DNA of 62,630 nucleotides, counting the filler. It is 12 parts of 12 records of this genome, joined end to end, with 100 filler letters (N's around TTAATTAATTAA, not from the genome) between each part and the next. Parts side by side here need not be neighbours in the genome. Positions count along the whole stretch, not along the records: positions 22,393 to 27,361 come from SRR7504441_10001; 11 more parts are not named here. The stretch is one strand, 5' to 3'. Numbering within the stretch: position 1 is the first letter of the stretch; each line of letters opens with the position of its first letter. Shown in pieces: positions 4,122 to 56,846 of the stretch. The position numbers and the translations under genes are program-made. The notes below the pieces were generated by a model. That model was not told the DNA's origin. It was given only the letters and a program-made list of their open reading frames with translations, and ran no database searches.

Positions 4122-4221
4122 NNNNNNNNNNNNNNNNNNNNNNNNNNNNNNNNNNNNNNNNNNNNTTAATTAATTAANNNNNNNNNNNNNNNNNNNNNNN
4201 NNNNNNNNNNNNNNNNNNNNN
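4122..4221. other. Artificial contig spacer (first of 11)
   Basis: 44 N + TTAATTAATTAA (stops in all six frames) + 44 N. Identical spacers at 7902-8001, 12156-12255, 17934-18033, 22293-22392, 27362-27461, 31349-31448, 35533-35632, 45544-45643, 53493-53592 and 56747-56846. Confidence 0.99.
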
Positions 4222-7901: not shown

Positions 7902-8003
7902 NNNNNNNNNNNNNNNNNNNNNNNNNNNNNNNNNNNNNNNNNNNNTTAATTAATTAANNNNNNNNNNNNNNNNNNNNNNNNNNNNNNNNNNNNNNNNNNN
8001 NGG

Positions 8004-12149: not shown

Positions 12150-12256
12150 ATCTGANNNNNNNNNNNNNNNNNNNNNNNNNNNNNNNNNNNNNNNNNNNNT
12201 TAATTAATTAANNNNNNNNNNNNNNNNNNNNNNNNNNNNNNNNNNNNNNNNNNNNG

Positions 12257-17902: not shown

Positions 17903-18033
17903 CTGGTGAGGAGGTCTGCTGATCGGGTGATGGNNNNNNNNNNNNNNNNNNNNNNNNNNNNNNNNNNNNNNNNNNNNTTAATTAATTAANNNNNNNNNNN
18001 NNNNNNNNNNNNNNNNNNNNNNNNNNNNNNNNN

Positions 18034-22292: not shown

Positions 22293-22498
22293 NNNNNNNN
22301 NNNNNNNNNNNNNNNNNNNNNNNNNNNNNNNNNNNNTTAATTAATTAANNNNNNNNNNNNNNNNNNNNNNNNNNNNNNNNNNNNNNNNNNNNTAAACAAA
22401 ATGTCAAGAGAGAAAGTATAGACTACTTTGTCCTTTCGTGAGATTGTAAAGACGCTGGTCTAATAACTTTATAACTATTGGACACCCCGGAGCGTGTG

Positions 22499-23761
22499 AT
22501 GGGGGACAACCGAGGGCTGGTACCGGTGAACGGTCCGCCGGGAAAATTCGACGAGTCAGCCCTGCCGGTCGAGTCCCAGCGGCTGCTTCAGATGGCGAAG
22601 AAGGAGGTCCAGACGAAGCACTCGGAGATGGACGCTGGGGTGCACAGCGGGGACGAGGAGGGCGGGTATGTTCGGCGTCGCGGGCGGCCAAAGGGGAGCA
22701 AGACGCTGAGCGCCTTCATCCAAAACGACGCCGAGAGGCGCAAGTACTTTGTCAAGCGGATCAAGGCCATCCGGTCCCAGGCGGGTGCCCCGTGAGAAGT
22801 AGAAGTCTGACGCTGGCGGGGGCGCGCAGGTGGCGGACACGTTCTCGCGGTGTTCGGGAGGCAACATCCTGGTAATCGCCATCCAGAGCGAGACCGGTCC
22901 CGCCCCTTCCCGCCTGGCCGGCCGCTGAGCTTGCGGGAGGCAGGCGGGGTGCACCACTGCGGGACCGGACCGTTCGAGCGGTTCATCCGAGACGAGGAGG
23001 TCACCGAGATTATGTATGCGCACCTGAACGATCAGAATCCCCCGCGCCGGCCCAAGGAGACCAAGGAGGTCAGAGACCCGCCCGCGAGGTCAGAAGAGGA
23101 GCTACTGGTTCGGTTGATGATTTCACGGATGGACACTCCTCTTGTGTGTCGCTGTGCGCAAGTGTGCAAGATCTGGCGGAGCTCATGCATAATGCCCACC
23201 CGCTGGCGGCAGGCCTTCATCCGCGACAACGGCGCGCAGGCCGTGAAAGACATTGAGACTGCGTTTGCGTCCACCAACAATGTGGCACTGCGCAATATAG
23301 ACTGGCATGCTCTGTACCGTGACCACGCCACCGTCCGGCGGTTGTGCCCCGACTGCCAGCTATTGGTCGAATTCAGGCCCCGGGTCCCCGGTTTTGATGG
23401 GCTGCTGATGGCAGTCATCACGATCCTCTCAGATCCAACAGAGAGAATCGAAATGATCCGTTGGACAATTGCTGAGCATTTCAGCCAATTCGGCGTGAAT
23501 GAGTCGTGGGAGATCGCCGATCAGATGATCAATTCGCTCTGGGCCGACCAGCGCGACTTGTTTAAGTTTCTACCGCTGAATACGTCGACTTTTGAGCGGC
23601 TTGAGCAGTACACATACACACACCACAACTGGCACGTATATGATCTACTGTTGAGTAAGATGGCCAAGCTGGCGCCCTTCTACCGGACCGCCGCGCTGCT
23701 CTCCCGGGCGCGGGTGATTTTTCCTGAAGAGTACATTCCTGTCGGCTGGCTAGTCGCTTGA
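22499..23761 (+). CDS. Divergent MADS-box (SRF-type) + F-box protein
   Basis: After removing introns 22781-22829 (GC-AG) and 22897-22943: RGRPKGSKTLSAFIQNDAERRKYFVKRIKAIRSQVADTFSRCSGGNILVIAIQSETGGVHHCGT, then EELLVRLMISRMDTPLVCRCAQVCKIWRSSC...W. Confidence 0.72.
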
Positions 23762-24305
23762 GTCCGAGCGATTCTCAAGCTTTGTGCCAGTGACGTATTC
23801 CTTTTGTTCACTTTGCCCAAGATCTGAAAAGGATCTTGTATCCCAAAGCCTTCTCTCGTGGTGAGGTCGTAGCTAGGTCGTAGCTGCCTAAGACGCGAGC
23901 GTTGGTACGTTTTGAGCTTGCATGCTCTTGGAATCTTGGATAATCACGGATAATTACGTGATTACGTGTTGTACAACGTGAAATTTAGATTTATTAAAAA
24001 GTCGGGGCCCTAGCGCTCACATCAAGACACGGCGAAAAAATGGTACAAGTCTAACGGCGAGAAAACTTATTTCAAGAGCCCCCCCGCCCACCCAACGTCT
24101 AAGTCACCGTACGGCGCGTACGCGACAAGCCCTGAATCGCTGAATGCCCCGACGATCTTTTAATATTGATCGGCCTTGAGTGTACTATCAGAATTAATTA
24201 CTTCGTATCACATAAGTATCAAACTGATTGCTCCTAGATGGGTACCCGGGCTGCCCCCTCTGCCTCTCCATTCAAACCCTCTATTCAATTCATTATGGAT
24301 CATAT

Positions 24306-26886
24306 TCAATTGAGACCAAAGGCCCAAATCAATGAAAGCGTCCCCCAAAACATCAAAATGACACAGAGAGAAACCAGCATTGCTGAGCATTTGAAGTGAC
24401 TCAGATCATCGATAAGCCGGCTCGTGTTAGCCAGCGCGCCCGCTGCCACAGGCAGCACCAACAACAGTGAACTGACGACCACTAGAAGGATCCAGCACAA
24501 GGTGCGCCCTACACCATCTAAAGTGTCGCTCTTTGTGGGACAGGCAGTGTCAGGGTGAAGCAGCAGCTCACTCGGACCAAGAGCAGTGAGAGTGATACCA
24601 ACAGCAAGCATGGTGGTTGACAGGAGCACCCAAAGGCCAAGGCAGACACCGTTCCACCAACTGTAAGGGAACGCTTTGAAGCCACTAACAAGCCAACAAA
24701 CATGGCACATCACAGTTCTGACGTCGTGCAACAGAACGATAGGAGAAATGAGCACCTGCACGTGCACGCAAAGTGAGAAACCAGCCAGCAAGGGCGGCCA
24801 CCAGAAGCGTCCCCCAGCAGAACCAGGCACAGACCCCCAAGGTGAGACCACCACCGCACCCTCGAGCAGCTCGGATTAGCATCACTTCAGCCAGCCAAAT
24901 CGCGGGCCCGGCGAGCGGCGCCAGCATGCGCAGCAGGATCTCGTCACTCAGGTTGATGTCAAGCCGTAACGCAGGCACGTGAGAGAGGTCGGGAAGGGTG
25001 TACAGGCTATAACAGCCTCTCCGACGCAGCTTTTTAAGGCTGCTGGGCAGCGGGGGTAGAACTTCCAGGAGAGGGCAGCTCTGAACGTCAAGCTCGGTGA
25101 GGCTTGTCAGATGGATCAGGCTCTCGGGCAGTGCCTCGAGCTTCGAACAGTTATGCAAACTTAAAGACTCGAGTGCCGTGAACAGACTGATTCGATCGGG
25201 CAACATGGCAAAGGCACTAGAGGAAAGACAAATCCGCCTGCATCGATCAAGGTCCAGCGCCGCAAGCACCGCCTCCACGTTCTCCTCTGAGTCTCCCTTC
25301 GACCCTTTCAAATCCAGTTCGATGTCGGGCAGCTTGGCGGCTCCTAGGGCGAATAGGAACTTGTCCCGCTGTGTCTTCGTCTGTTCGAGAGCCCTGCGCA
25401 GTGCCGAAGCAGCCACAATGCCGTGGACGGTGACATTGAGCTGGCTGCTGTCATCTCCGATCGATTCAAGAATCCGCTGCCTATCCGAATCGACGGAAGC
25501 CTTGCCATCCTCACAGCGAAAGGTCACTCCGACCTCAAACAGCTGGAAAGGGAAGGTCTGTTCCCTCAAAATCTTCTCTTGAGGCAAACCACGATCGGCC
25601 GCCACCAGACTCGTGGTTACCCCAGAAGCTTCACGCACGACAACGCGCGACTCTGACATAGGCCCGAACATCCTGTGGGCCCCAACTGAGAAAGCAGCAA
25701 GCAATCGCAGCCACCATCCCAGATGCCTCCCGAGGAAACGCCCAACACGCCTCGCCCCGAAGCATGCCACAAAGGGCGTGTACCACACAGTCTCAAACGT
25801 CCTGATTCTACATGGATTGGTGCCCAGCGCCTCGAAGCAGCTCTCGACCTTGAGCGCCCACCGGCCTGGCAGCTCAATTTCTTGAGGCTCTCGCTCCGGG
25901 ACATACATATCATAGTAAGCCTTACGCCCAGGCTTCCGGTTGACCAGGCTCTCGTACAATTCATACACACCTGGCACAGGCTCGGCCAGCTTGCCGTGTG
26001 GTTTACTTACACCAAATCCGGCTCCACGAGACCCCATTGTGGTCGAGCACTGATAGCGTCCCATCAGCCAGCTGCATGGCCCTGTGAAACGGGGTGAACT
26101 GGAGCTCTTGCCCAATCGGCAGCTCCTTGGCCAGCTCCGCCGGGTGCTGCCGGTTAGCTACCCCCTCCGTCAGCCATACTCCAACCATCACCCCGACCGT
26201 ATGCGCATTGTAGTTAGACATAGATTCTATGTAGTTAGTGTAAAGATACCGTATGCGCAGACCCAGTATGCCGTGTCCCGGTGGAGCCCTCGGTCTATCA
26301 CGTGCTGCCTCACACAGCTCACAAACCCGAGCACTGCGCTGGCCCAGGTGTGCGAGACAAACCAATCCGGCGGCTGCTCGGCGCTCGCCATCAGTTCGAC
26401 CATCGAACAGAGCCGGGCCAGAGTGGCCGGCAGAATCACCCATTCGAGCAAATCATACAGGTTAACCTCGCCCGGATCGGACAGCTCCACCCCCCCGGTC
26501 CCCGGCCGGCTCACAGCCCAGCGCTCGCCGGCCCCGATTCGTCGGTGGATGTGTCTGGCCACCCTTTCCAGTTGGGGGACCGAGATAGCCCTCCTGGCCG
26601 TGTCCGGGATCACGCACCCGCTCCCATCGGCTGAATGCAGGTCGTTAAACCCATCGGACGCCTCGTTCTCCACCGGACCGGAGAGAGGGGGCTCGTCGTC
26701 TGGCTCAATCGTGCTCACTGTGACCGCCCGCGGGCTGCAGCCCCATCGAGCAGTGAGCAGCTCATCCTCACTTGGAAAACTGCTCAACCCTTGAATCGGT
26801 TGGGCAGCCTGGTCTGTCTCGTTCTCGGCTGCCAGCCACCCATCGTCGCCGCCCTCCGCACCCATCGTCGCCAGCCCATCGTCCAT
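24306..26886 (-). CDS. HET/TIR-like domain + LRR + C-terminal multi-TM protein
   Basis: FVSHTW, YWVCAY|ANRQH, PFHRAM and SRIWC|VYE motifs, then LPDRISLFTALESLSLHNCSKLEALPESL-type LRRs and 5-6 hydrophobic segments. Introns at 26158-26249 and elsewhere. The start could instead be the ATG at 26865. Confidence 0.75.
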
Positions 26887-26922
26887 TGCGTTCGGTTGAG
26901 ACTTTCTTATCCTCAGCAGCAA

Positions 26923-27361
26923 ATGGCCTCTGTTTTGCTGAAAGCGGCACTGCTCGTGCTCTTTGCGGCTACCCTGACCTCCTCGTCTATCGAGACCGAC
27001 GACGTCGAGAACCTGCACGGTTTGCATGCCTTGCCTGGTGCGCGCTGATAGTGCGAGCAGATATGGACGCCGATGAGTACGATCCTGATGTCGCGCGTGC
27101 ACTGAAGCTTGGCAACACGGAAGACCTGCTCGAGGTGGGCGAAAACGAGGAAGAGGGGTTCGCCGGTGCTTCGTTGTTGACCACTGGTGATCCTCCCCCC
27201 TCTCTTGTGCCCTCTCATTCGCCGTAACACGTTTAGTCGTGGTTGCTCAACCCTGCCGTCCGGTGCTCTCCTTCCGGCACTGGTAGTATATTGCCTTGGG
27301 ATGTCGGGCTGTGTCGAACGAGGTATCGGGTGACAGGTTCATTCATCATGATGTCGCTGAC
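26923..27361 (+). CDS. Secreted acidic protein, 3' partial
   Basis: Signal peptide MASVLLKAALLVLFAATLTSS. Introns 27020-27060 and about 27187-27336 give LLEVGENEEEGFAGASLLTTG|SFIMMS. Confidence 0.65.
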
Positions 27362-27526
27362 NNNNNNNNNNNNNNNNNNNNNNNNNNNNNNNNNNNNNNN
27401 NNNNNTTAATTAATTAANNNNNNNNNNNNNNNNNNNNNNNNNNNNNNNNNNNNNNNNNNNNAATACCGTACAGAGCAGCAGTACCCTCGCGGGATTTGCC
27501 GTTAGAACAACGGCACGAGCACGTCG

Positions 27527-31348: not shown

Positions 31349-31448
31349 NNNNNNNNNNNNNNNNNNNNNNNNNNNNNNNNNNNNNNNNNNNNTTAATTAA
31401 TTAANNNNNNNNNNNNNNNNNNNNNNNNNNNNNNNNNNNNNNNNNNNN

Positions 31449-33616: not shown

Positions 33617-35467
33617 TCAGTCAAAACCGAGATGCAGCCAGTCTGGATGTTCAAAGAAACGCACATAGCACCTGGCCATCCCGCTACAGTCGGCTGCAAA
33701 CAGCACCTGCGATAGCGTCCAGTCCCACCCGAACGATTTTGAGTTCGCTAGCAGCTCCATCCCGGCCCGCTCGCTCAGCTCCCCTTCTTCAAGCAGCAGC
33801 TCCAGCTCGTGAGCCAGCGCCCGCTCCTTGCTCCCCTCGGGGTACCGCCCCAGGCCCTTGGGGCTCGGCAGCTCGCCCTCCGGCCGATTAAGCAGCAAGA
33901 TGTTATTCCCGTGGCAGCTCCAGCCGCCAGTCTGGCGCTCGATTTCAAACCGGGTCGGCGTGACCTCGCAGGTTACCATCCCGTGCCCCGGCTGGGCCAG
34001 TACGAACACGTTTGGGAAGGCACGCGGCGCAGCCCGGAGCAGCTCCACTGCATCAGGCAGGCAGGTCTGAGCGAGCAGCTCACGGCAGAGACAGGAGAAG
34101 GGCACCCCGCCGAGCAAGTTACGCTCTGGGTCGTGAATGGCCAGCGACATGAGCGAGAGCCCAAGCGAGTTGCATCCCATCTTGGCAACCATACCCGAAT
34201 GGGTGTATGTGAGCACAGAGGGCTCGCCCTCCAACCGGAGCAGCACGTCGGCCACTCGCCCGCCCGGTGCGTACAGCAAGCTACACTCGTCGTTGTTCTG
34301 GCCGCACACCACTCTCTCCGGCTCGACTACCCCGAATGAGGTGCAACCGCGCCCGTCTACCTTCTCCATCTCATAATAAACGGCTAGCCGACTGACGGGC
34401 TCCCACCCGAGCACGCTCGCCATCCCGGCCATCTCTTGGTACGCAGTCGGCGTCCACTGCTCAGCGAGCGCCATCCCGGCCTCGGCAACCTGCTCCCAGA
34501 GCTCTTCAGTGGCCACAGCGAGCACTTGCTCTCGCTTGAGTTGGTACAGCCCGCGGATCTGCTGCTCGAGCCGGCGGCCGATGAACGCCCCCCGCTCAAA
34601 CCCGCTCACACCCGGCACCCGCAGCTCGACGCAGCTCGGCTCAGGGCACGGCGGCTCCTGCTCAGTGCTTGGTGGCTCAAAGCCGGACAGAATCAGCCCA
34701 GCTGCAGCGTCCATGTCGCCCCCGGCAGCGACAAGCGCGGCCTCGGCCACCGCGGCAGAGCAGCCAGTCACACTTATGAGCCGCTCGGCTTGCTCGCTCT
34801 CGGGCTGCTGCTGGGCTGGGGCTGCCTGCCCTAGCAGCTTGCCAGTCTCCGCACAGATAGCCAGCCAGGCGCAGTACTGCCGGGGCACTGTCGCCCCGAA
34901 CTCGGCCCCTGCCCGCGAGACCACCCCATAGTGCGTCACCAGCACCACGGCCCGCCCCTCCTCCCCCGCCACCCGCCTCCAGTGCGCCAGCCCGGCCATG
35001 ATGCTCTGACCGCTCTGTCCCGGCGGCAGTCGCCCGCCCCCGGACCCGCCGGCGCGCTCCAACTCCTCCGTACTCAGCTCGAGCCGCTCGAGCCGGCAAC
35101 CCGCGGGCAGCATCGCCTCGAGCGCCAGGTCGCTCAGGTACACGGGCGGCTCGACCCCAACCTGACACGCCACGTCGGCGGCCACTCCGGCCTGGTCTTC
35201 GCCCACACGATCGTCCACCAGCACCCGCGACTGCCCGAGCGGCCCGGCCAGCACCGCGGCGGTCTGGACACACCGGCGGAACGGCGAGCTGACCAGCAGC
35301 GGGTCGTTTAGGCTGCCCAGCCGCTCGGTGAGCTGGTCGAGCGCCTCGAGCGGCAGTTGGGGGTCCGAGATGGGCGGGTCGTGCGGCGTGGCCTCCTGGT
35401 CGGCCCAGGCCACCGCTGAGCTGGGCGCCTTGTCCTGCCGCGCGCTGTGCCGCACCAATACGAGCAT
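33617..35467 (-). CDS. Histidine phosphatase + UBA + peptidase C45 (AAT-like Ntn hydrolase) fusion
   Basis: One uninterrupted ORF: VLVRHS, VSSPFRRCVQTA, LVTHYG; then LISVTGCSAAVAEAALVAAGGDMDAAAGLIL; then GCTSFG, GQNND, GCNSLGL, HGNNIL. Confidence 0.85.
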   Translation of the reverse strand: MLVLVRHSARQDKAPSSAVAWADQEATPHDPPISDPQLPLEALDQLTERLGSLNDPLLVSSPFRRCVQTAAVLAGPLGQSRVLVDDRVGEDQAGVAADVACQVGVEPPVYLSDLALEAMLPAGCRLERLELSTEELERAGGSGGGRLPPGQSGQSIMAGLAHWRRVAGEEGRAVVLVTHYGVVSRAGAEFGATVPRQYCAWLAICAETGKLLGQAAPAQQQPESEQAERLISVTGCSAAVAEAALVAAGGDMDAAAGLILSGFEPPSTEQEPPCPEPSCVELRVPGVSGFERGAFIGRRLEQQIRGLYQLKREQVLAVATEELWEQVAEAGMALAEQWTPTAYQEMAGMASVLGWEPVSRLAVYYEMEKVDGRGCTSFGVVEPERVVCGQNNDECSLLYAPGGRVADVLLRLEGEPSVLTYTHSGMVAKMGCNSLGLSLMSLAIHDPERNLLGGVPFSCLCRELLAQTCLPDAVELLRAAPRAFPNVFVLAQPGHGMVTCEVTPTRFEIERQTGGWSCHGNNILLLNRPEGELPSPKGLGRYPEGSKERALAHELELLLEEGELSERAGMELLANSKSFGWDWTLSQVLFAADCSGMARCYVRFFEHPDWLHLGFD

Positions 35468-35632
35468 CTCCAATACGACTGTAGCAAAGAGTCGCTCCGC
35501 GCCGGACGTCAGTTGTCAGTTGGCGGAGCAACNNNNNNNNNNNNNNNNNNNNNNNNNNNNNNNNNNNNNNNNNNNNTTAATTAATTAANNNNNNNNNNNN
35601 NNNNNNNNNNNNNNNNNNNNNNNNNNNNNNNN

Positions 35633-45543: not shown

Positions 45544-45784
45544 NNNNNNNNNNNNNNNNNNNNNNNNNNNNNNNNNNNNNNNNNNNNTTAATTAATTAAN
45601 NNNNNNNNNNNNNNNNNNNNNNNNNNNNNNNNNNNNNNNNNNNAGATCGAGCCTGTCAGCTGGACCAGCAGCGGCAGCCCCGCCCAGTGCCGCTGGTCGT
45701 ACAGGATCATCTCAGCTTGTCTGCCGGCATGGGCCCGTTTTGGGACGTGTGGGGCGTTGCGTCCGTTGAAGTCCGTTGATAGCC

Positions 45785-49299: not shown

Positions 49300-52200
49300 C
49301 TAGTAACTTAGATATTGCAAGATTTCTTCCAAATCTTGCTCGGAGCATAGCGCCTTAGCCATGACCTCTCTTTTAGATGAGCCCTCCAGGTGAACCAGCG
49401 AGGATATCAAATCGCCATCAATCATATCACGCCCGGGGCCAGCAGACTGTGCACTCCAGAATTGCTGATGCGACGCAGCTCCGAGAGGCTCAAAACTGGG
49501 GGCCTGTGCTAGCTGCAGCTGGATCTGAGCGAGTTTCTGGTACAGTCGGGCTGGGATCGCTACGACTTGCCCAACCGCACCGGAGGCGGTGACCAACACA
49601 GCACTCTTCTGCCCAGCGTGTTTGGTATGACACAAATCAGCTCCGCCTATTGTGCCCTCGCAAAAGCAAGTGACGCGATGCCCACAGTGGCACGCACACA
49701 CAAGCTCGATGGCCGCACCGCTGAGCGTCGATATTCCAACCAGGCCCTGGTGATCTGCCCAGACCAGTGAGCCGTGGCTTAGGTACTGCATGCTCGTGAG
49801 CACTAGATTGCGCGAGTCTCGAGCCACCACAACGAGTAATTTATCTTCCGGACGATATTCGTACACTGTCACTGAACGAAATGTTTCGGCAACAGCAAAG
49901 CGATTTGTGCCCGGTTCCACTGATGCAGTGAGTGCACAGCCATGGTTCGGGGTTGCTAATTCGGCTAGCTGGCGTAGCTCGCCATCCTCAATCCCGAAGA
50001 TCGTAACATTCTGATTCACCACCGCCCCCAAGACTCCACAGTCGAGCCATCCGAGTGCGTAGCAGCCCGCCTTTGGGAGCTCGACCGACGCCTTGAGCTC
50101 GAGCCTCCAGGTGTCTGCACCGTCCAGCGGCCCGAGCTGCGCCATCTCAAACACCGACACATAGCAGCACTGCGATCCGGTCTCCAGTCCATCAGACGGC
50201 AGGACAACGGATGCGATCCCGATCCTGCCGGATTCTGAGGCGGACAGCGCGGTGAGCTGATGGCCTGGCTCGAGCGCCAGCTCGCCGCACTGCGCGAGCG
50301 AGTCAAGCTGCAGGATGCGCAGCTTAGAGCCGACGGTCTGCGAATCTTGGGTCACTAGCAGCAGCTTGGCGGCCTGGGCGCGCTTCCAGTGCAGCAGATG
50401 CTTGGGCGTCTCGCCCAGCTGGACAGACTGCCAGCGGATTGCGAGCGTGTGGTCAATTGTGCCGCCGCGGAGCATTCCATCGCTGTGCAAGTAAGCCAAA
50501 ACTTGCTCCTGGTCCGAGTTTGTTCCAACCAGAACCACACTCAGCGCCCCGTCAAGTCCCTCCAACCGGCAACAGCTCATCCCGCCGGCACCTACCGTCA
50601 CTATTGCAGAGCGATCGCTGTGCGCAACCCAACGCAGCCCAGAGCCTTGGTCACTAGCGCCAAGATCACACAGTCTGACCTCTCGGTCGCCCACCTTGGC
50701 CAAGGCCACCTGCTCGAGCGAGTGGGTCGATTGGCGGTAATTGAGCAGAACGACCGACCCCTCGGCCAGACCGGCCACCAGCTGGAGCGAGTTGGCCAGC
50801 CTGAGCGACCTCGCCGGGGCCGTCTGCGCCAGCCTCAAGCTAGCGAGCAGCTCCCACTGCTCCGAAACCGCATAAAGCTGCACTTCCGGCGGGTCGTTGC
50901 CCTGGCTCCACACCTGTTGCGCAACCGTCAGATCCGGCCAGCAAGCTATGCACCCCGAGCGCGGCCGAGTCGCTGGACGAGGCGAGTGCTGAGATCGCCA
51001 GCCCGGCTTGCAGCTTTAGGCTGCTCCGGCAGGCCACCTTGCCCGGCGCCAGCTGCAGAGCCCAGACCGTGCAGGAGGCCGCCACCAGCAGCACGGGGGC
51101 GGACCACTCGGCCGTCAGCAGCGGTTCCGGGCTGGGCCACTGCCCGCTGAGCCGCCCGCCGAGCACAAGCCGCACGCTATCGGGCAGCACTTGCACGTAG
51201 CCCGACTGGCCGGCCAGCTGCACCTCAGCCGCAGCCACTGTCCAGCCGCCGGTGTGCAGCCCGGGCAAGTCGCCCTCGGAGGCGGCACCGTCTGCGGTGA
51301 GTCGGAGCTGCTGAGTGCGGGCCGCTGTCCGGTGAGTCATCACGAGCGTGTCGGCCAGCCAGATCAGCTGCGGCCGCCCAAGCTGCTCCACCTCCAGCTC
51401 AAAGCTGATCAACAGCTCAGCCGCCATCACTCCGCGCCGGAGCGAGCCCTGCCTGCCGTGCCCGCAGCAGCAGACCAGTTGCTGCCCGCCGTCCGCGAAG
51501 CAGTCGACCAGCGCCGCCTGGTGGATCGGGGCCACGTTCATGACAAACGCAGGATCAAGAACCTCCAGCTCGGCCGGCCGCACCTCCAGTCGGGCCAGCA
51601 CCGAGTGCCCGGAGGCGCAGCCCACCAGCAGCATCCGTTGGCATAGCGGCACCAGCTGGCGCGGCTCGCCCAAGGTGGGCCCGACTGCTCTCACCAGCTC
51701 GATCCGGTCGAGGCTCACCGACCCGATCAGCGCCTGCCCGGACATCGTGAGCAGCACGCACTGGACCGGCCCGCCCGGCGCCCGCTCGAGCGCGCAGGCC
51801 CGGACCACTCGCTCCGGGCAGCTGATCTGGGCGCGGCGGCCATCGGCATCGTACAGTGCTAGCAGTTGGTCGGACACACAGAGCACAGACGAGCCGGTCG
51901 GGCCTGGGAGCAGCTGCGAGCTGGAGCGGTGCGCCTGCCTGACCCACCAGGGGCCCGGCTCTATCGCGCCGGAGCCAAACTCGAACAGCACGCACTGGAG
52001 GTGGACCAGCCCAGGCTCAGAGGCGTCCTCGTACAGCACAGCCACATGGCTCTCGCCGGTCCAAAGCAAGTCGGCCGCGCTGGCCGGGGCGGACACGAAC
52101 AGCATGTCCCGCACCAGGCAGTCCGAGCCCTGCCGGCCGCACCCGAACGGCCAGAGCATCAGCTGCTGCTCCACCTCGATCTTGCCGGCCGGGCCCCGCC

Positions 52201-52669
52201 GGAAGCTCAGCCCGTTGAACAGCCCGTCCCAAGCGCACACGAGCACCCGCCCGAACTCGTCCTCCCCACGCATCTCCACGATCCCGGCCGCCCCCTCCGC
52301 CCGCTCGGCCCGGAGCGCTGCGTCCGGGTGGGCCGCCCCGTGCGCCGGGTGCAACTCGCCGGCCGCTGCCCGCCGGAATCGGAAGCTCGGCTGGTCCCAC
52401 TGGAGCAGGGCCCAGCTGTGCTCGGCCGTGGTGAGGAAGAGCAGGTGCCGGCCGGTCAGCTGCTCCGGCACCGCCAGGCAGAGCTCGAGCTGCCCGAGCA
52501 CCGCCGACGAGTGCTTGAACCCCATCCGGTCGCCCTCCGGCTGCCAAAGCTCGACCGACGAGCTCCGGGCCAGCACCAGCTCCCCCCCGCCCGCCCCCGT
52601 GAAGCTGCCGGTCACCCCGCAGCTCACCGACGAAGCCGCGTGCAGCGTTCGCAGCACACTTGCCTCCAT
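49300..52669 (-). CDS. DDB1/SF3B3/CPSF160-family beta-propeller protein (divergent DDB1-like)
   Basis: GSFTG...ELVLARSSSVELW, NVAPI...QLVCCCGHGRQGSLR, AETFRSVTVY, VVARD and MIDGDLI. One intron near 50910-50950. Confidence 0.85.
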
Positions 52670-52799
52670 CGAACAGCGCTCCCCTAGTAGGGCCCCTGTG
52701 CTCCAATTTCGCTTCGAGCTTTCCGCACTTGCCCCGCCCGGCCGTTGCGGGGAGGGGCACCTTGGCGCCAGTGGTTGTAGCGACGGGACGGACCGTAGG

Positions 52800-53492
52800 A
52801 TGGAGCCGCTGGTGGCGCCGCGGTCGGTCTCGCTCAGCCCGAGCTGCACCCAGCTCAGTTCGATGGTGGCGGAGCTCCGACTGGCCCAGATCCAGCTGAG
52901 AGGCCAAGGCTCGCGCTCGACCAGCCCCACCGCACACCGGCTGCCCGACCCGGGCCCGATCGAGTCAACAGAGCCGCCAACCCAGCTGCAGCCGGCCCAG
53001 CTGGTGGCGGCCACCGAGGGGCTGGAGCGGGCAGCCAAGCAGCTGCTGGACTGCGGGCTGCTGGCCGAGGCCGGCGAGATGGAGCGGCTCTGGTGGCAGC
53101 TGAGCGCGATGGCCAAGGAGGGGTCGGTGTCGGCCGAGCAGCTGGCCGCGGTCGAGCTCAAGCTGGTCCGGATGGCCAAGCAGATGGACGGCCCGCCGGC
53201 CGAGCAGATCGCGGGCGAGGTGCGGGCGGTGGCCCGGCAGCTGGGCGAGCTGCTCGAGCAGACCGAGGGCCGGCTGGCCGAACAGATCCACAAGGCCGGG
53301 CTGGGCGAGCCGCAGCTCCGGCTGGTGCTTAGCTCACTCCGGCAGGTGCTGGCTGCGCTCTCAAGGGGCGAGCTCGGGCTGCGGATCCAGATCTGGCGCG
53401 ACAGCAAGCGAGAGGCCAAGCAAGCGGCCAGGGACGCCGCCAATGCGCTCGAGCTGCTGGCCAAGGACTCGCGCTCCGGGCTCCGGATGCTC
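52800..53492 (+). CDS. Hypothetical helical protein, 3' partial
   Basis: Open from the ATG at 52800 to the contig end, with coding-like codon bias. Confidence 0.55.
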
Positions 53493-53592
53493 NNNNNNNN
53501 NNNNNNNNNNNNNNNNNNNNNNNNNNNNNNNNNNNNTTAATTAATTAANNNNNNNNNNNNNNNNNNNNNNNNNNNNNNNNNNNNNNNNNNNN

Positions 53593-56698: not shown

Positions 56699-56846
56699 GT
56701 ACTCGGCGCTCACCATCAGTACCCCCCCCCCCCCCCCCCCCCCCCCNNNNNNNNNNNNNNNNNNNNNNNNNNNNNNNNNNNNNNNNNNNNTTAATTAATT
56801 AANNNNNNNNNNNNNNNNNNNNNNNNNNNNNNNNNNNNNNNNNNNN

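Follow-up and report, generated by a model that had tools for sequence, protein, structure and literature searches.

We identified a gene encoding a protein with a divergent MADS-like domain followed by an F-box in a stretch of DNA of 62,630 nt (hereafter the window), at positions 22499-23761 on the plus strand. The window consists of 12 contig pieces (~3.2-9.9 kb each) joined by 11 identical linkers, N44-TTAATTAATTAA-N44. The locus belongs to a GC-rich marine protist and is a genuine nuclear gene, expressed and with three exons; both domains are homologous at the family level to known MADS and F-box domains, and the combination recurs in full-length proteins of several species. We hold with high confidence that the architecture, a MADS-like domain and an F-box in one chain, is real. 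As to its function, the sequence features suggest a homodimeric, DNA-tethered substrate receptor of the Skp1-Cul1-F-box (SCF) type, a reading to which we give about an even chance.

After joining the exons by script (22499-22780, 22830-22896 and 22944-23761, plus strand), a reading frame of 1167 nt encoding 388 amino acids (aa) was obtained, with one stop codon, at its end. An in-frame stop (22472-22474) lies upstream of the ATG. The gene is contained entirely in the piece at 22393-27361 and starts 106 nt past the linker. The product of exon 1 ends with FVKRIKAIRSQ, that of exon 2 is VADTFSRCSGGNILVIAIQSET, followed by the initial base of a split Gly codon, and that of exon 3 opens with GVHHCGTGPFERF (GVHHCGT) and continues as far as the stop codon (23759-23761). 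Each intron is very short, with a GC content of 71% for intron 1 and 79% for intron 2. The features of the gene are as follows; homologous proteins are given by number, AF2 stands for AlphaFold2, and pLDDT for its predicted local distance difference test score.

22499-22780, plus strand: exon 1 (aa 1-94), with the ATG, the N-terminal helix, an acidic stretch, the basic RGRP arm and the first part of alpha-I
22562-22630, plus strand: N-terminal helix (aa 22-44), kept in P0004, P0005, P0013, P0052 and P0053
22673-22702, plus strand: basic arm RRRGRPKGSK (aa 59-68), with an AT-hook-like RGRP core, aligned with the N-terminal basic extension of SRF/Mcm1
22673-23029, plus strand: MADS-like region, predicted to serve DNA binding and dimerisation, with a SAM-like alpha-II (aa 59-145, both introns inside), from profiles, AF2 and shuffles
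22781-22829, plus strand: intron 1 (49 nt, GC..AG, phase 0)
22830-22896, plus strand: exon 2 (aa 95-117), in which alpha-I of the MADS-like domain ends and its beta-1 and SETG turn lie
22897-22943, plus strand: intron 2 (47 nt, GT..AG, phase 1)
22944-23761, plus strand: exon 3 (aa 117-388, stop at 23759-23761), one open frame that runs from beta-2 and alpha-II through the linker and the F-box to the C-terminal domain
23090-23224, plus strand: F-box (aa ~166-210), from Pfam F-box-like and the subfamily profile
23225-23344, plus strand: helical linker that joins the F-box to the C-terminal domain and is kept within the F-box subfamily, with helices in the AF2 model (exon-3 product)
23345-23758, plus strand: C-terminal all-helical domain, putatively substrate-binding, of no named family (AF2 pLDDT ~85-95)

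In a first-pass annotation made from the sequence, the gene was proposed to be hidden in the track of open reading frames by two introns, one of them of the GC-AG type. This proposal was borne out for intron 2 by RNA and for intron 1 by homologues, and the peptide quoted there is indeed encoded at the place given for it. In an oligo-dT RNA library (run X3), one contig of 151 nt connects 22895/6 with 22943/4 and so lacks the 47 nt of intron 2 with its GT..AG ends. All five RNA contigs, from 4 runs of 4 studies, are at least 99% identical to the window and together cover 22861-23222 and 23493-23750 (the exon 3 part being 22943-23222 plus 23493-23750). The gene is thus present in marine poly(A)/oligo-dT RNA libraries; the share of sampled words in the RNA runs is small (0.05-0.15), and for this reason we draw from it no inference on habitat or abundance. 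Across 22400-22860, including exon 1 and intron 1, no RNA contig was found, so that the model of intron 1 rests on homologues. The three exon products align end to end with P0004, a homologue of 388 aa (265 of 388 residues identical), which is uninterrupted at both junctions, as is P0007 of the same cluster (RSQVSDTF and SETGGVHH), and the product of exon 1 is colinear with the N-termini of P0004, P0005 and P0052. The intron positions are shared: P0012, a partial gene call, departs from the family sequence into the intron directly after RSQ, P0008 carries an in-frame insertion directly after SETG, and P0053 departs from the family sequence directly after SETG.

An alternative GT donor 4 nt downstream of the GC donor was considered and rejected, because with it the frame is shifted, a stop is met at codon 222 of 390 and no similarity is left downstream. 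The first-pass annotation had named this donor as a point on which the MADS match could fail. Since the homologues are colinear, the intron positions are shared and the GT donor shifts the frame, the GC donor is retained. In the orthologue represented by P0008, intron 2 is apparently 48 nt long and the gene caller reads through it in frame; annotation in this lineage may often mistake such short in-frame introns for coding sequence.

The connection of the MADS-like region to SRF and Mcm1 was obtained with family profiles. In an hhalign comparison of the 22-sequence family alignment (A4) with two canonical SRF-type proteins, 104 columns were aligned with a probability of 96.6% and an expectation value (E) of 4.9e-10, from the basic arm through the LN motif after alpha-II. 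When P0004 was searched with phmmer against 177,635 PDB sequences, the top matches were Mcm1 (E 0.005) and SRF (E 0.01), over ~90 residues, and the two best matches in the PDB of a three-sequence profile (A2) were again Mcm1 (E 0.001) and SRF (E 0.0022 and 0.0068). Against 1.84 billion representative proteins, the A2 profile gave 43 matches at E<=1e-3, which were classified by sequence inspection into 12 members or fragments of the F-box subfamily, 18 MADS-like proteins without F-box, 9 ordinary F-box proteins, 2 stand-alone relatives of the C-terminal domain and 2 canonical MADS proteins. The last two, P0046 (E 3.3e-4) and P0050 (E 7.6e-4), score 70.6 and 73.9 bits with the SRF-TF model of Pfam. 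The Smith-Waterman score of window residues 55-150 was 97 against P0046 (shuffles 27.3 +/- 4.7; 0 of 2000 reached it) and 49 against P0050 (reached by 1 of 2000 shuffles), a test that is not an independent draw because both proteins had been chosen by the family profile.

The curated cut-off of SRF-TF (PF00319) is 26 bits. Five of the 12 members that hold the region gave matches at E<=0.04 (P0025, 26.0 bits; P0052, 25.2; P0024, 20.5; P0016, 16.4; P0026, 14.0). In P0052, a full-length MADS-F-box protein, the match (E 1.1e-5) extends over profile positions 1-46 of 48 and is accompanied by an F-box-like match. The three exon products of the window, scanned singly, gave no SRF-TF match, the pieces being too short. 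The SRF residues that contact DNA are known; the K-R pair of alpha-I is kept in the F-box subfamily (FVKRIK, and FSKRIRG in P0052), aligned with the KR of the canonical FSKRK, and the K position is N, E or S in most F-box-less members. The match to the SRF/Mcm1 core had initially been aligned by eye. As homology it stands on the family profiles, and what has to be amended is the kind of domain, a divergent and lineage-specific form of which the closest stand-ins are missed by Pfam SRF-TF. Judged from these profiles, the MADS domain is a real but divergent relative of SRF/Mcm1.

The AT-hook motif is defined by an R-G-R-P core in a basic context, and an AT-hook-like stretch had been noted before the MADS match. 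The core is present in such a context, and it is kept in the F-box subfamily and in P0015-P0017; the RGRP arm thus occurs also in some F-box-less members. As a separate module, in contrast, it was not confirmed. Whenever RRRGRPKGSK was aligned to Mcm1, SRF or the canonical proteins, it fell on their basic N-terminal extension, and in P0016 and P0017, which lack the F-box, the spacing in the alignment from RGRP to the aromatic-I start equals that of SRF. We therefore read the stretch as part of the MADS domain, because it is aligned with the MADS N-terminal arm, and an arm with an AT-hook-like core would be coherent with minor-groove contact. The preceding N-terminal helix is modelled at residues 26-45 of P0004 (block pLDDT 82 and 79).

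The structure was predicted with AF2 for P0004 as a stand-in, from a family-only alignment that contained no canonical MADS rows. The MADS region of this model (pLDDT 50-74) consists of helix 79-105 (27 residues), strands 112-115 and 121-124 and helices 127-134 and 136-146, so that the order of a long alpha-I, a two-stranded beta hairpin and alpha-II is matched with modest confidence. In a Foldseek search with this model, the six best PDB rows were all SRF or Mcm1 (E 0.12-0.21, probability 0.90-0.95), with MEF2 lower. Two copies of P0004 residues 58-150 were predicted to form a dimer with a score of 0.64 against 0.00 for the best of 3 controls; at least 83% of contacts agree between runs, and the partner pLDDT is at least 74. 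The predicted interface is formed by beta-1 (108-114, within 103-116), alpha-I and alpha-II, which is the layout of the MADS dimer. In calibration, the mark used was passed by 21 of 30 solved pairs of one chain and 0 of 23 single chains from microbes, and by 17 of 29 pairs (only 1 of the 7 without an older solved relative) and 0 of 30 single chains from eukaryotes.

The F-box that had been read after the MADS domain has profile support at the family level, the window copy itself lying below the Pfam cut-offs (24.3 bits for PF12937, F-box-like, and 20.5 bits for PF00646, F-box). The F-box-like model was matched above its cut-off in three of seven subfamily members (P0005, 35.9 bits; P0006, 33.7; P0009, 30.9) and below it, at the orthologous place, in P0004 (18.8), P0052 (21.0) and P0011 (18.7); the Pfam matches of the window span profile positions 14-47 only, the second two-thirds. 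When the subfamily profile was compared with the PDB, 15 of the 18 matches at E<=1 were F-box chains, FBXL3 being the best (E 9.6e-4), followed by FBXO31, FBXL5, KDM2B, FBXL2 and GID2. At the places of F-box helices H1-H3, the model of P0003 has helices 50-61, 67-70 and 75-81 (pLDDT 41-49). No F-box chain was found among the structural matches, the lists being filled by the C-terminal domain. A search of the ESM Atlas with the whole of P0004 gave sub-threshold rows (0.79-0.80), and among the matches listed two of four carry F-box families. The Pro of the L-P pair is among the most conserved positions of F-boxes, and some F-boxes that lack it are functional; the sister clade (P0005, P0006, P0009, P0052 and P0054) retains the start P-E-E-L/V/I-L-V. 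By these profile data the F-box can be relied on at the level of the family, and the motif has decayed somewhat in the window copy.

Both domains are present in one chain in at least four distinct full-length proteins, namely the window protein, P0004/P0007, P0005 and P0052, the homologues being 45-68% identical to that of the window. The succession of a MADS-like domain and an F-box in one protein, which the first-pass annotation had read as an unfamiliar combination, is thus recurrent. In addition, the fragments P0008 and P0011 extend across the junction of the two domains, and Pfam F-box-like was detected in further fragments of the F-box and C-terminal half (P0006, P0009, P0054 and P0064). 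Most homologues lie on contigs of 1.1-1.9 kb with an uninterrupted frame; such short contigs, holding an uninterrupted frame, fit transcripts. A sister subfamily (P0016-P0029 and P0051) has the same divergent MADS-like domain and no F-box. Its members are 30-40% identical to P0004 overall, and their C-terminus differs, with weak matches to Pfam PF11001 (YDR124W-like helical bundle; E 0.0013-0.23, below cut-off).

The C-terminal helical domain (~140-175 aa) was overlooked in the first reading of the sequence. SCF substrate receptors usually carry a folded domain behind the F-box, and with this domain, putatively substrate-binding, the window protein has that layout. No Pfam family was found for it in the exon products of the window and the members scanned, Foldseek gave nothing at E<=0.001 with either model, and the ESM Atlas gave no usable match with the C-terminal part. 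With VIA-align, the best Z scores, 5.9 and 7.0, belong to generic helical-repeat pieces (such as TPR/HAT, CID and 14-3-3) and are insufficient for naming the fold. The domain has stand-alone relatives of 128-176 aa (P0042, P0043 and P0057-P0063), of which P0042 and P0043 were found at a library-wide E of ~1e-4 and, by tblastn against the window, at E 1e-6 and 7e-6. The contigs of metagenome-assembled genomes (MAGs) that carry stand-alone relatives are labelled Nitrospira, Binatia and, by source name, Methanomethylicaceae archaeon. The two loci located on bacterial MAG contigs are listed below.

L001, 2911-3360: stand-alone relative of the C-terminal domain
L002, 5001-5384: stand-alone relative of the C-terminal domain, amid ordinary bacterial genes (LysR, acyl-CoA dehydrogenase and an AMP-binding enzyme)

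A viral origin of the stand-alone domain was also considered and dropped, as no match was found in viral_contigs.

If the window protein is a homodimeric, DNA-tethered SCF substrate receptor, it may work as follows. As SRF and Mcm1 do, the MADS-like domain would bind DNA as a homodimer, its alpha-I and basic arm lying in the grooves; the F-box would recruit Skp1-Cul1; and the C-terminal helical domain would hold the substrate. Such a dimeric receptor, placed at specific DNA sites, could ubiquitylate a co-bound regulator or chromatin protein, and its own stability may be tied to SCF, as for many F-box proteins. The DNA binding, the Skp1 binding, the substrate and the outcome are all predictions of this scheme. 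Likewise, both functions put forward in the first-pass annotation, a DNA-bound SCF adaptor and a self-destabilising transcription factor, stay at the level of prediction. A more specific form of it, which we put forward tentatively and think somewhat improbable, is that the MADS dimer anchors Skp1-Cul1 at promoter sites and that DNA sequence thereby guides ubiquitylation, whether it falls on a co-bound regulator, a histone or the MADS paralogues of the protein, as a lineage-specific device of marine protists. The components of such a promoter-targeted device would be an unnamed, divergent branch of MADS domains and a new helical substrate domain with bacterial stand-alone relatives.

A number of observations weigh against the DNA-tethered receptor. 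With respect to the MADS-like domain, the cut-off of SRF-TF is reached by P0025 only, 1 of the 12 members, and no SRF-TF match at E<=10 was found in P0004 and P0005, the closest full-length stand-ins. Several canonical positions of alpha-I are altered (in the FSKRK block, for instance, V replaces S and I replaces the third basic residue), and the window protein, P0004 and P0053 each have an additional residue where alpha-I ends, as compared with all other members and canonical MADS proteins. This residue sits exactly at the junction of intron 1 (aa 94/95; 22780/22830), and it is probably genuine and no splice-site error, because P0053 reads through there yet leaves the family sequence at the site of intron 2. 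The structural matches are weak in absolute terms (Foldseek E ~0.1, root-mean-square deviation ~9 A, MADS-region pLDDT 50-74). The pass of the dimer test indicates likeness and may reflect memory of the model, because the dimers of SRF, Mcm1 and MEF2 have been solved, and it was run on P0004 in place of the window protein, with the alignment unused. CArG-type words, CC(W6)GG, occur twice in the window against 1.29 expected, a count that 35 of 100 shuffles reach and that is uninformative. With respect to the F-box, the product of exon 3 scores 20.3 bits (E 4.9e-4) with PF12937 and 17.8 bits with PF00646, below both cut-offs, and its best match in the PDB, when searched alone, is FBXL2 at E 0.11. 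The F-box starts without Pro in the window protein (SEEELLV) and in P0004 (TQEEVLV), and likewise in P0011, and the pLDDT over the F-box is 34-49.

Other explanations of the same data have to be weighed. The MADS-like domain could be a protein-protein module that captures the F-box-less paralogues for SCF degradation, as a built-in antagonist, or that merely dimerises the SCF receptor; we regard this reading, in either version, as unlikely. In Fbw7, Cdc4 and beta-TrCP a D domain precedes the F-box and dimerises the receptor, and the MADS-like domain stands N-terminal to the F-box, where D domains sit; moreover, the sister subfamily with the same domain and another C-terminus exists (18 of the 43 profile matches), and the dimer-interface residues in beta-1 and alpha-II are common to both subfamilies. 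However, the basic arm and the K-R pair of alpha-I are better kept in the F-box subfamily than in most F-box-less members, a retention that argues for retained DNA contact, and a protein module would leave the conserved C-terminal domain without a role. The protein may instead be a transcription factor in the first place, its F-box serving as a degron-like handle that makes its half-life short and SCF-dependent or as a dock for Skp1 in a non-ligase complex. Skp1 is known from such complexes, with Ctf13 in the yeast centromere-binding complex CBF3 and with KDM2B in PRC1.1, and autoubiquitylation of F-box proteins is established. The domain evidence that favours the DNA-tethered receptor fits a transcription factor as well, and the F-box of the window clade, with its conserved starting Pro lost and its score below the Pfam cut-off, fits a relaxed or altered Skp1/cullin function. 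The F-box and the C-terminal domain are, nevertheless, conserved jointly across clades that are only 45-50% identical; such joint conservation would be more readily expected of a functioning receptor that has a substrate domain than of a degron alone, and we consider the transcription-factor explanation doubtful.

An artefact is highly improbable, whether through accidental likeness to MADS, wrong splicing of the model or a chimera of two genes in the assembly. It could be suspected from the chaining of 12 contigs in the window, with a linker 106 nt before the gene, from the non-canonical GC donor of intron 1 with no RNA cover, and from the failure of Pfam SRF-TF to detect P0004 and P0005. Against it, the gene lies wholly in one piece, and the last MADS elements and the F-box are in the single open frame of exon 3; since beta-2/alpha-II already stand beside the F-box within exon 3, it is unlikely that the MADS exons and exon 3 never share a transcript. 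Independent homologues on their own contigs of 1.3-1.7 kb share the architecture, the profile statistics already allow for database size, and none of 2000 shuffles reached the observed score. The artefact explanation is thus largely refuted, and the DNA-tethered SCF receptor is retained as the preferred reading.

Among systems of known structure, the best matches of the window family in sequence and fold are the type I MADS proteins SRF and Mcm1 (PDB 1SRS, 1HBX, 1K6O and 1MNM). The order of basic arm, alpha-I, beta hairpin and alpha-II is the same, a symmetric dimer via beta-1, alpha-I and alpha-II is predicted, and the shared positions include the aromatic-I start, the R of KR, TG, the SETG turn and LN after alpha-II. 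Unlike SRF/Mcm1, to which the identity is ~26-28%, the family lies mostly below the SRF-TF cut-off or is missed by the model, has the RGRP core in a longer arm and, in the window clade, carries the extra alpha-I residue; an F-box and a helical domain follow in place of activation or partner-binding regions, and DNA binding is here a prediction. The F-box-less paralogues (P0016-P0029 and P0051) have the MADS-like domain in common with the window protein and differ in the C-terminus. KDM2A and KDM2B (FBXL11 and FBXL10), which combine a CxxC DNA-binding domain with an F-box and leucine-rich repeats (LRRs), bring Skp1 complexes to defined DNA. They resemble the window protein in having a DNA-reading domain and an F-box in one protein, and their F-boxes are among the PDB matches of the subfamily profile (E 0.029-0.75); they differ in reading unmethylated CpG by a CxxC zinc finger, where a MADS dimer is predicted here, and in carrying also JmjC, PHD and an LRR tail, where the tail of the window protein is an unnamed helical domain. 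Ctf13 of yeast CBF3 is an F-box protein that works on DNA via partner proteins, and it has no MADS domain. By these comparisons the window protein would work as something between SRF/Mcm1 and DNA-tethered F-box proteins of the KDM2A/B kind.

Two further F-box proteins come close to this arrangement in different ways. Fbh1, described as an F-box DNA helicase (PMC2294136), shares with the window protein the property of an F-box protein acting on DNA, which it reaches by its helicase domain, without MADS. In the F-box A2 family of Caenorhabditis, as described in PMC12062965, a helix-turn-helix (HTH) of Tc1/Mariner was taken up into F-box genes and kept as a gene family, and the HTH is proposed there to serve protein binding and not transcription. 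The A2 family thus offers a precedent for the re-use of a DNA-binding fold in protein binding; its HTH is derived from a transposon (PMC12062965), whereas the domain in the window is a relative of cellular MADS domains that keeps basic, putatively DNA-contacting positions. A full-text literature search, covering titles and abstract openings, gave no description of a MADS-F-box protein, and supplementary tables may still hold one. M-type MADS factors are reported in haptophytes and none in stramenopiles (PMC4827209). F-box is not mentioned in the available part of the text of PMC4827209, the supplementary transcription-factor lists of which may hold such an architecture; likewise, the supplementary domain co-occurrence data of PMC12062965 over 10 million eukaryotic proteins, unlike the text searched, could contain it.

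Elsewhere in the window, no second copy of the gene was found by tblastn with 11 query proteins (members of the MADS-like family, two canonical MADS proteins and two stand-alone proteins of the C-terminal domain). The gene neighbourhood across a linker is meaningless because the window is made of chained short contigs. The linkers and the other features recorded are as follows.

4122-4221, 7902-8001, 12156-12255, 17934-18033, 22293-22392 and 27362-27461: linkers, N44-TTAATTAATTAA-N44
31349-31448, 35533-35632, 45544-45643, 53493-53592 and 56747-56846: the remaining linkers, of the same sequence
24306-26157, minus strand: long LRR frame, convergent with the MADS-F-box gene in the same piece, matching LRR models of the plant NLR type (PF25019, E 6.7e-7; PF23286)
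33617-35515, minus strand: open frame of 632 aa with weak matches to histidine phosphatase branch 1, UBA-like and AAT acyltransferase (E 3e-5 to 4e-4)
49300-53536, minus strand: beta-propeller frames of the DDB1/CPSF160/RSE1 type (PF10433, E 8.3e-13; PF23726; PF03178, E 7.4e-21)

A hydrophobic frame at 24306-24875 adjoins the LRR frame, and the two are possibly one gene. The domain combination of the 632-aa frame is unusual, and the DDB1/CPSF160/RSE1-type frame extends up to the linker at 53493.

MADS-box proteins are among the best-studied transcription factors of eukaryotes, and F-box proteins are the main substrate receptors of SCF. The family described here is a divergent MADS-like family of marine protists with at least two architectures, and surveys that use Pfam cut-offs will under-count MADS proteins in these lineages because the SRF-TF model mostly misses the family. 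The C-terminal domain represents a further unnamed family, with bacterial stand-alone relatives. If our reading of the conserved and expressed MADS-F-box fusion is true, it would be an example from nature of a sequence-specific DNA-binding domain that targets ubiquitylation to particular loci, a principle that, to our knowledge, is known so far mainly from the CxxC-F-box proteins KDM2A/B.

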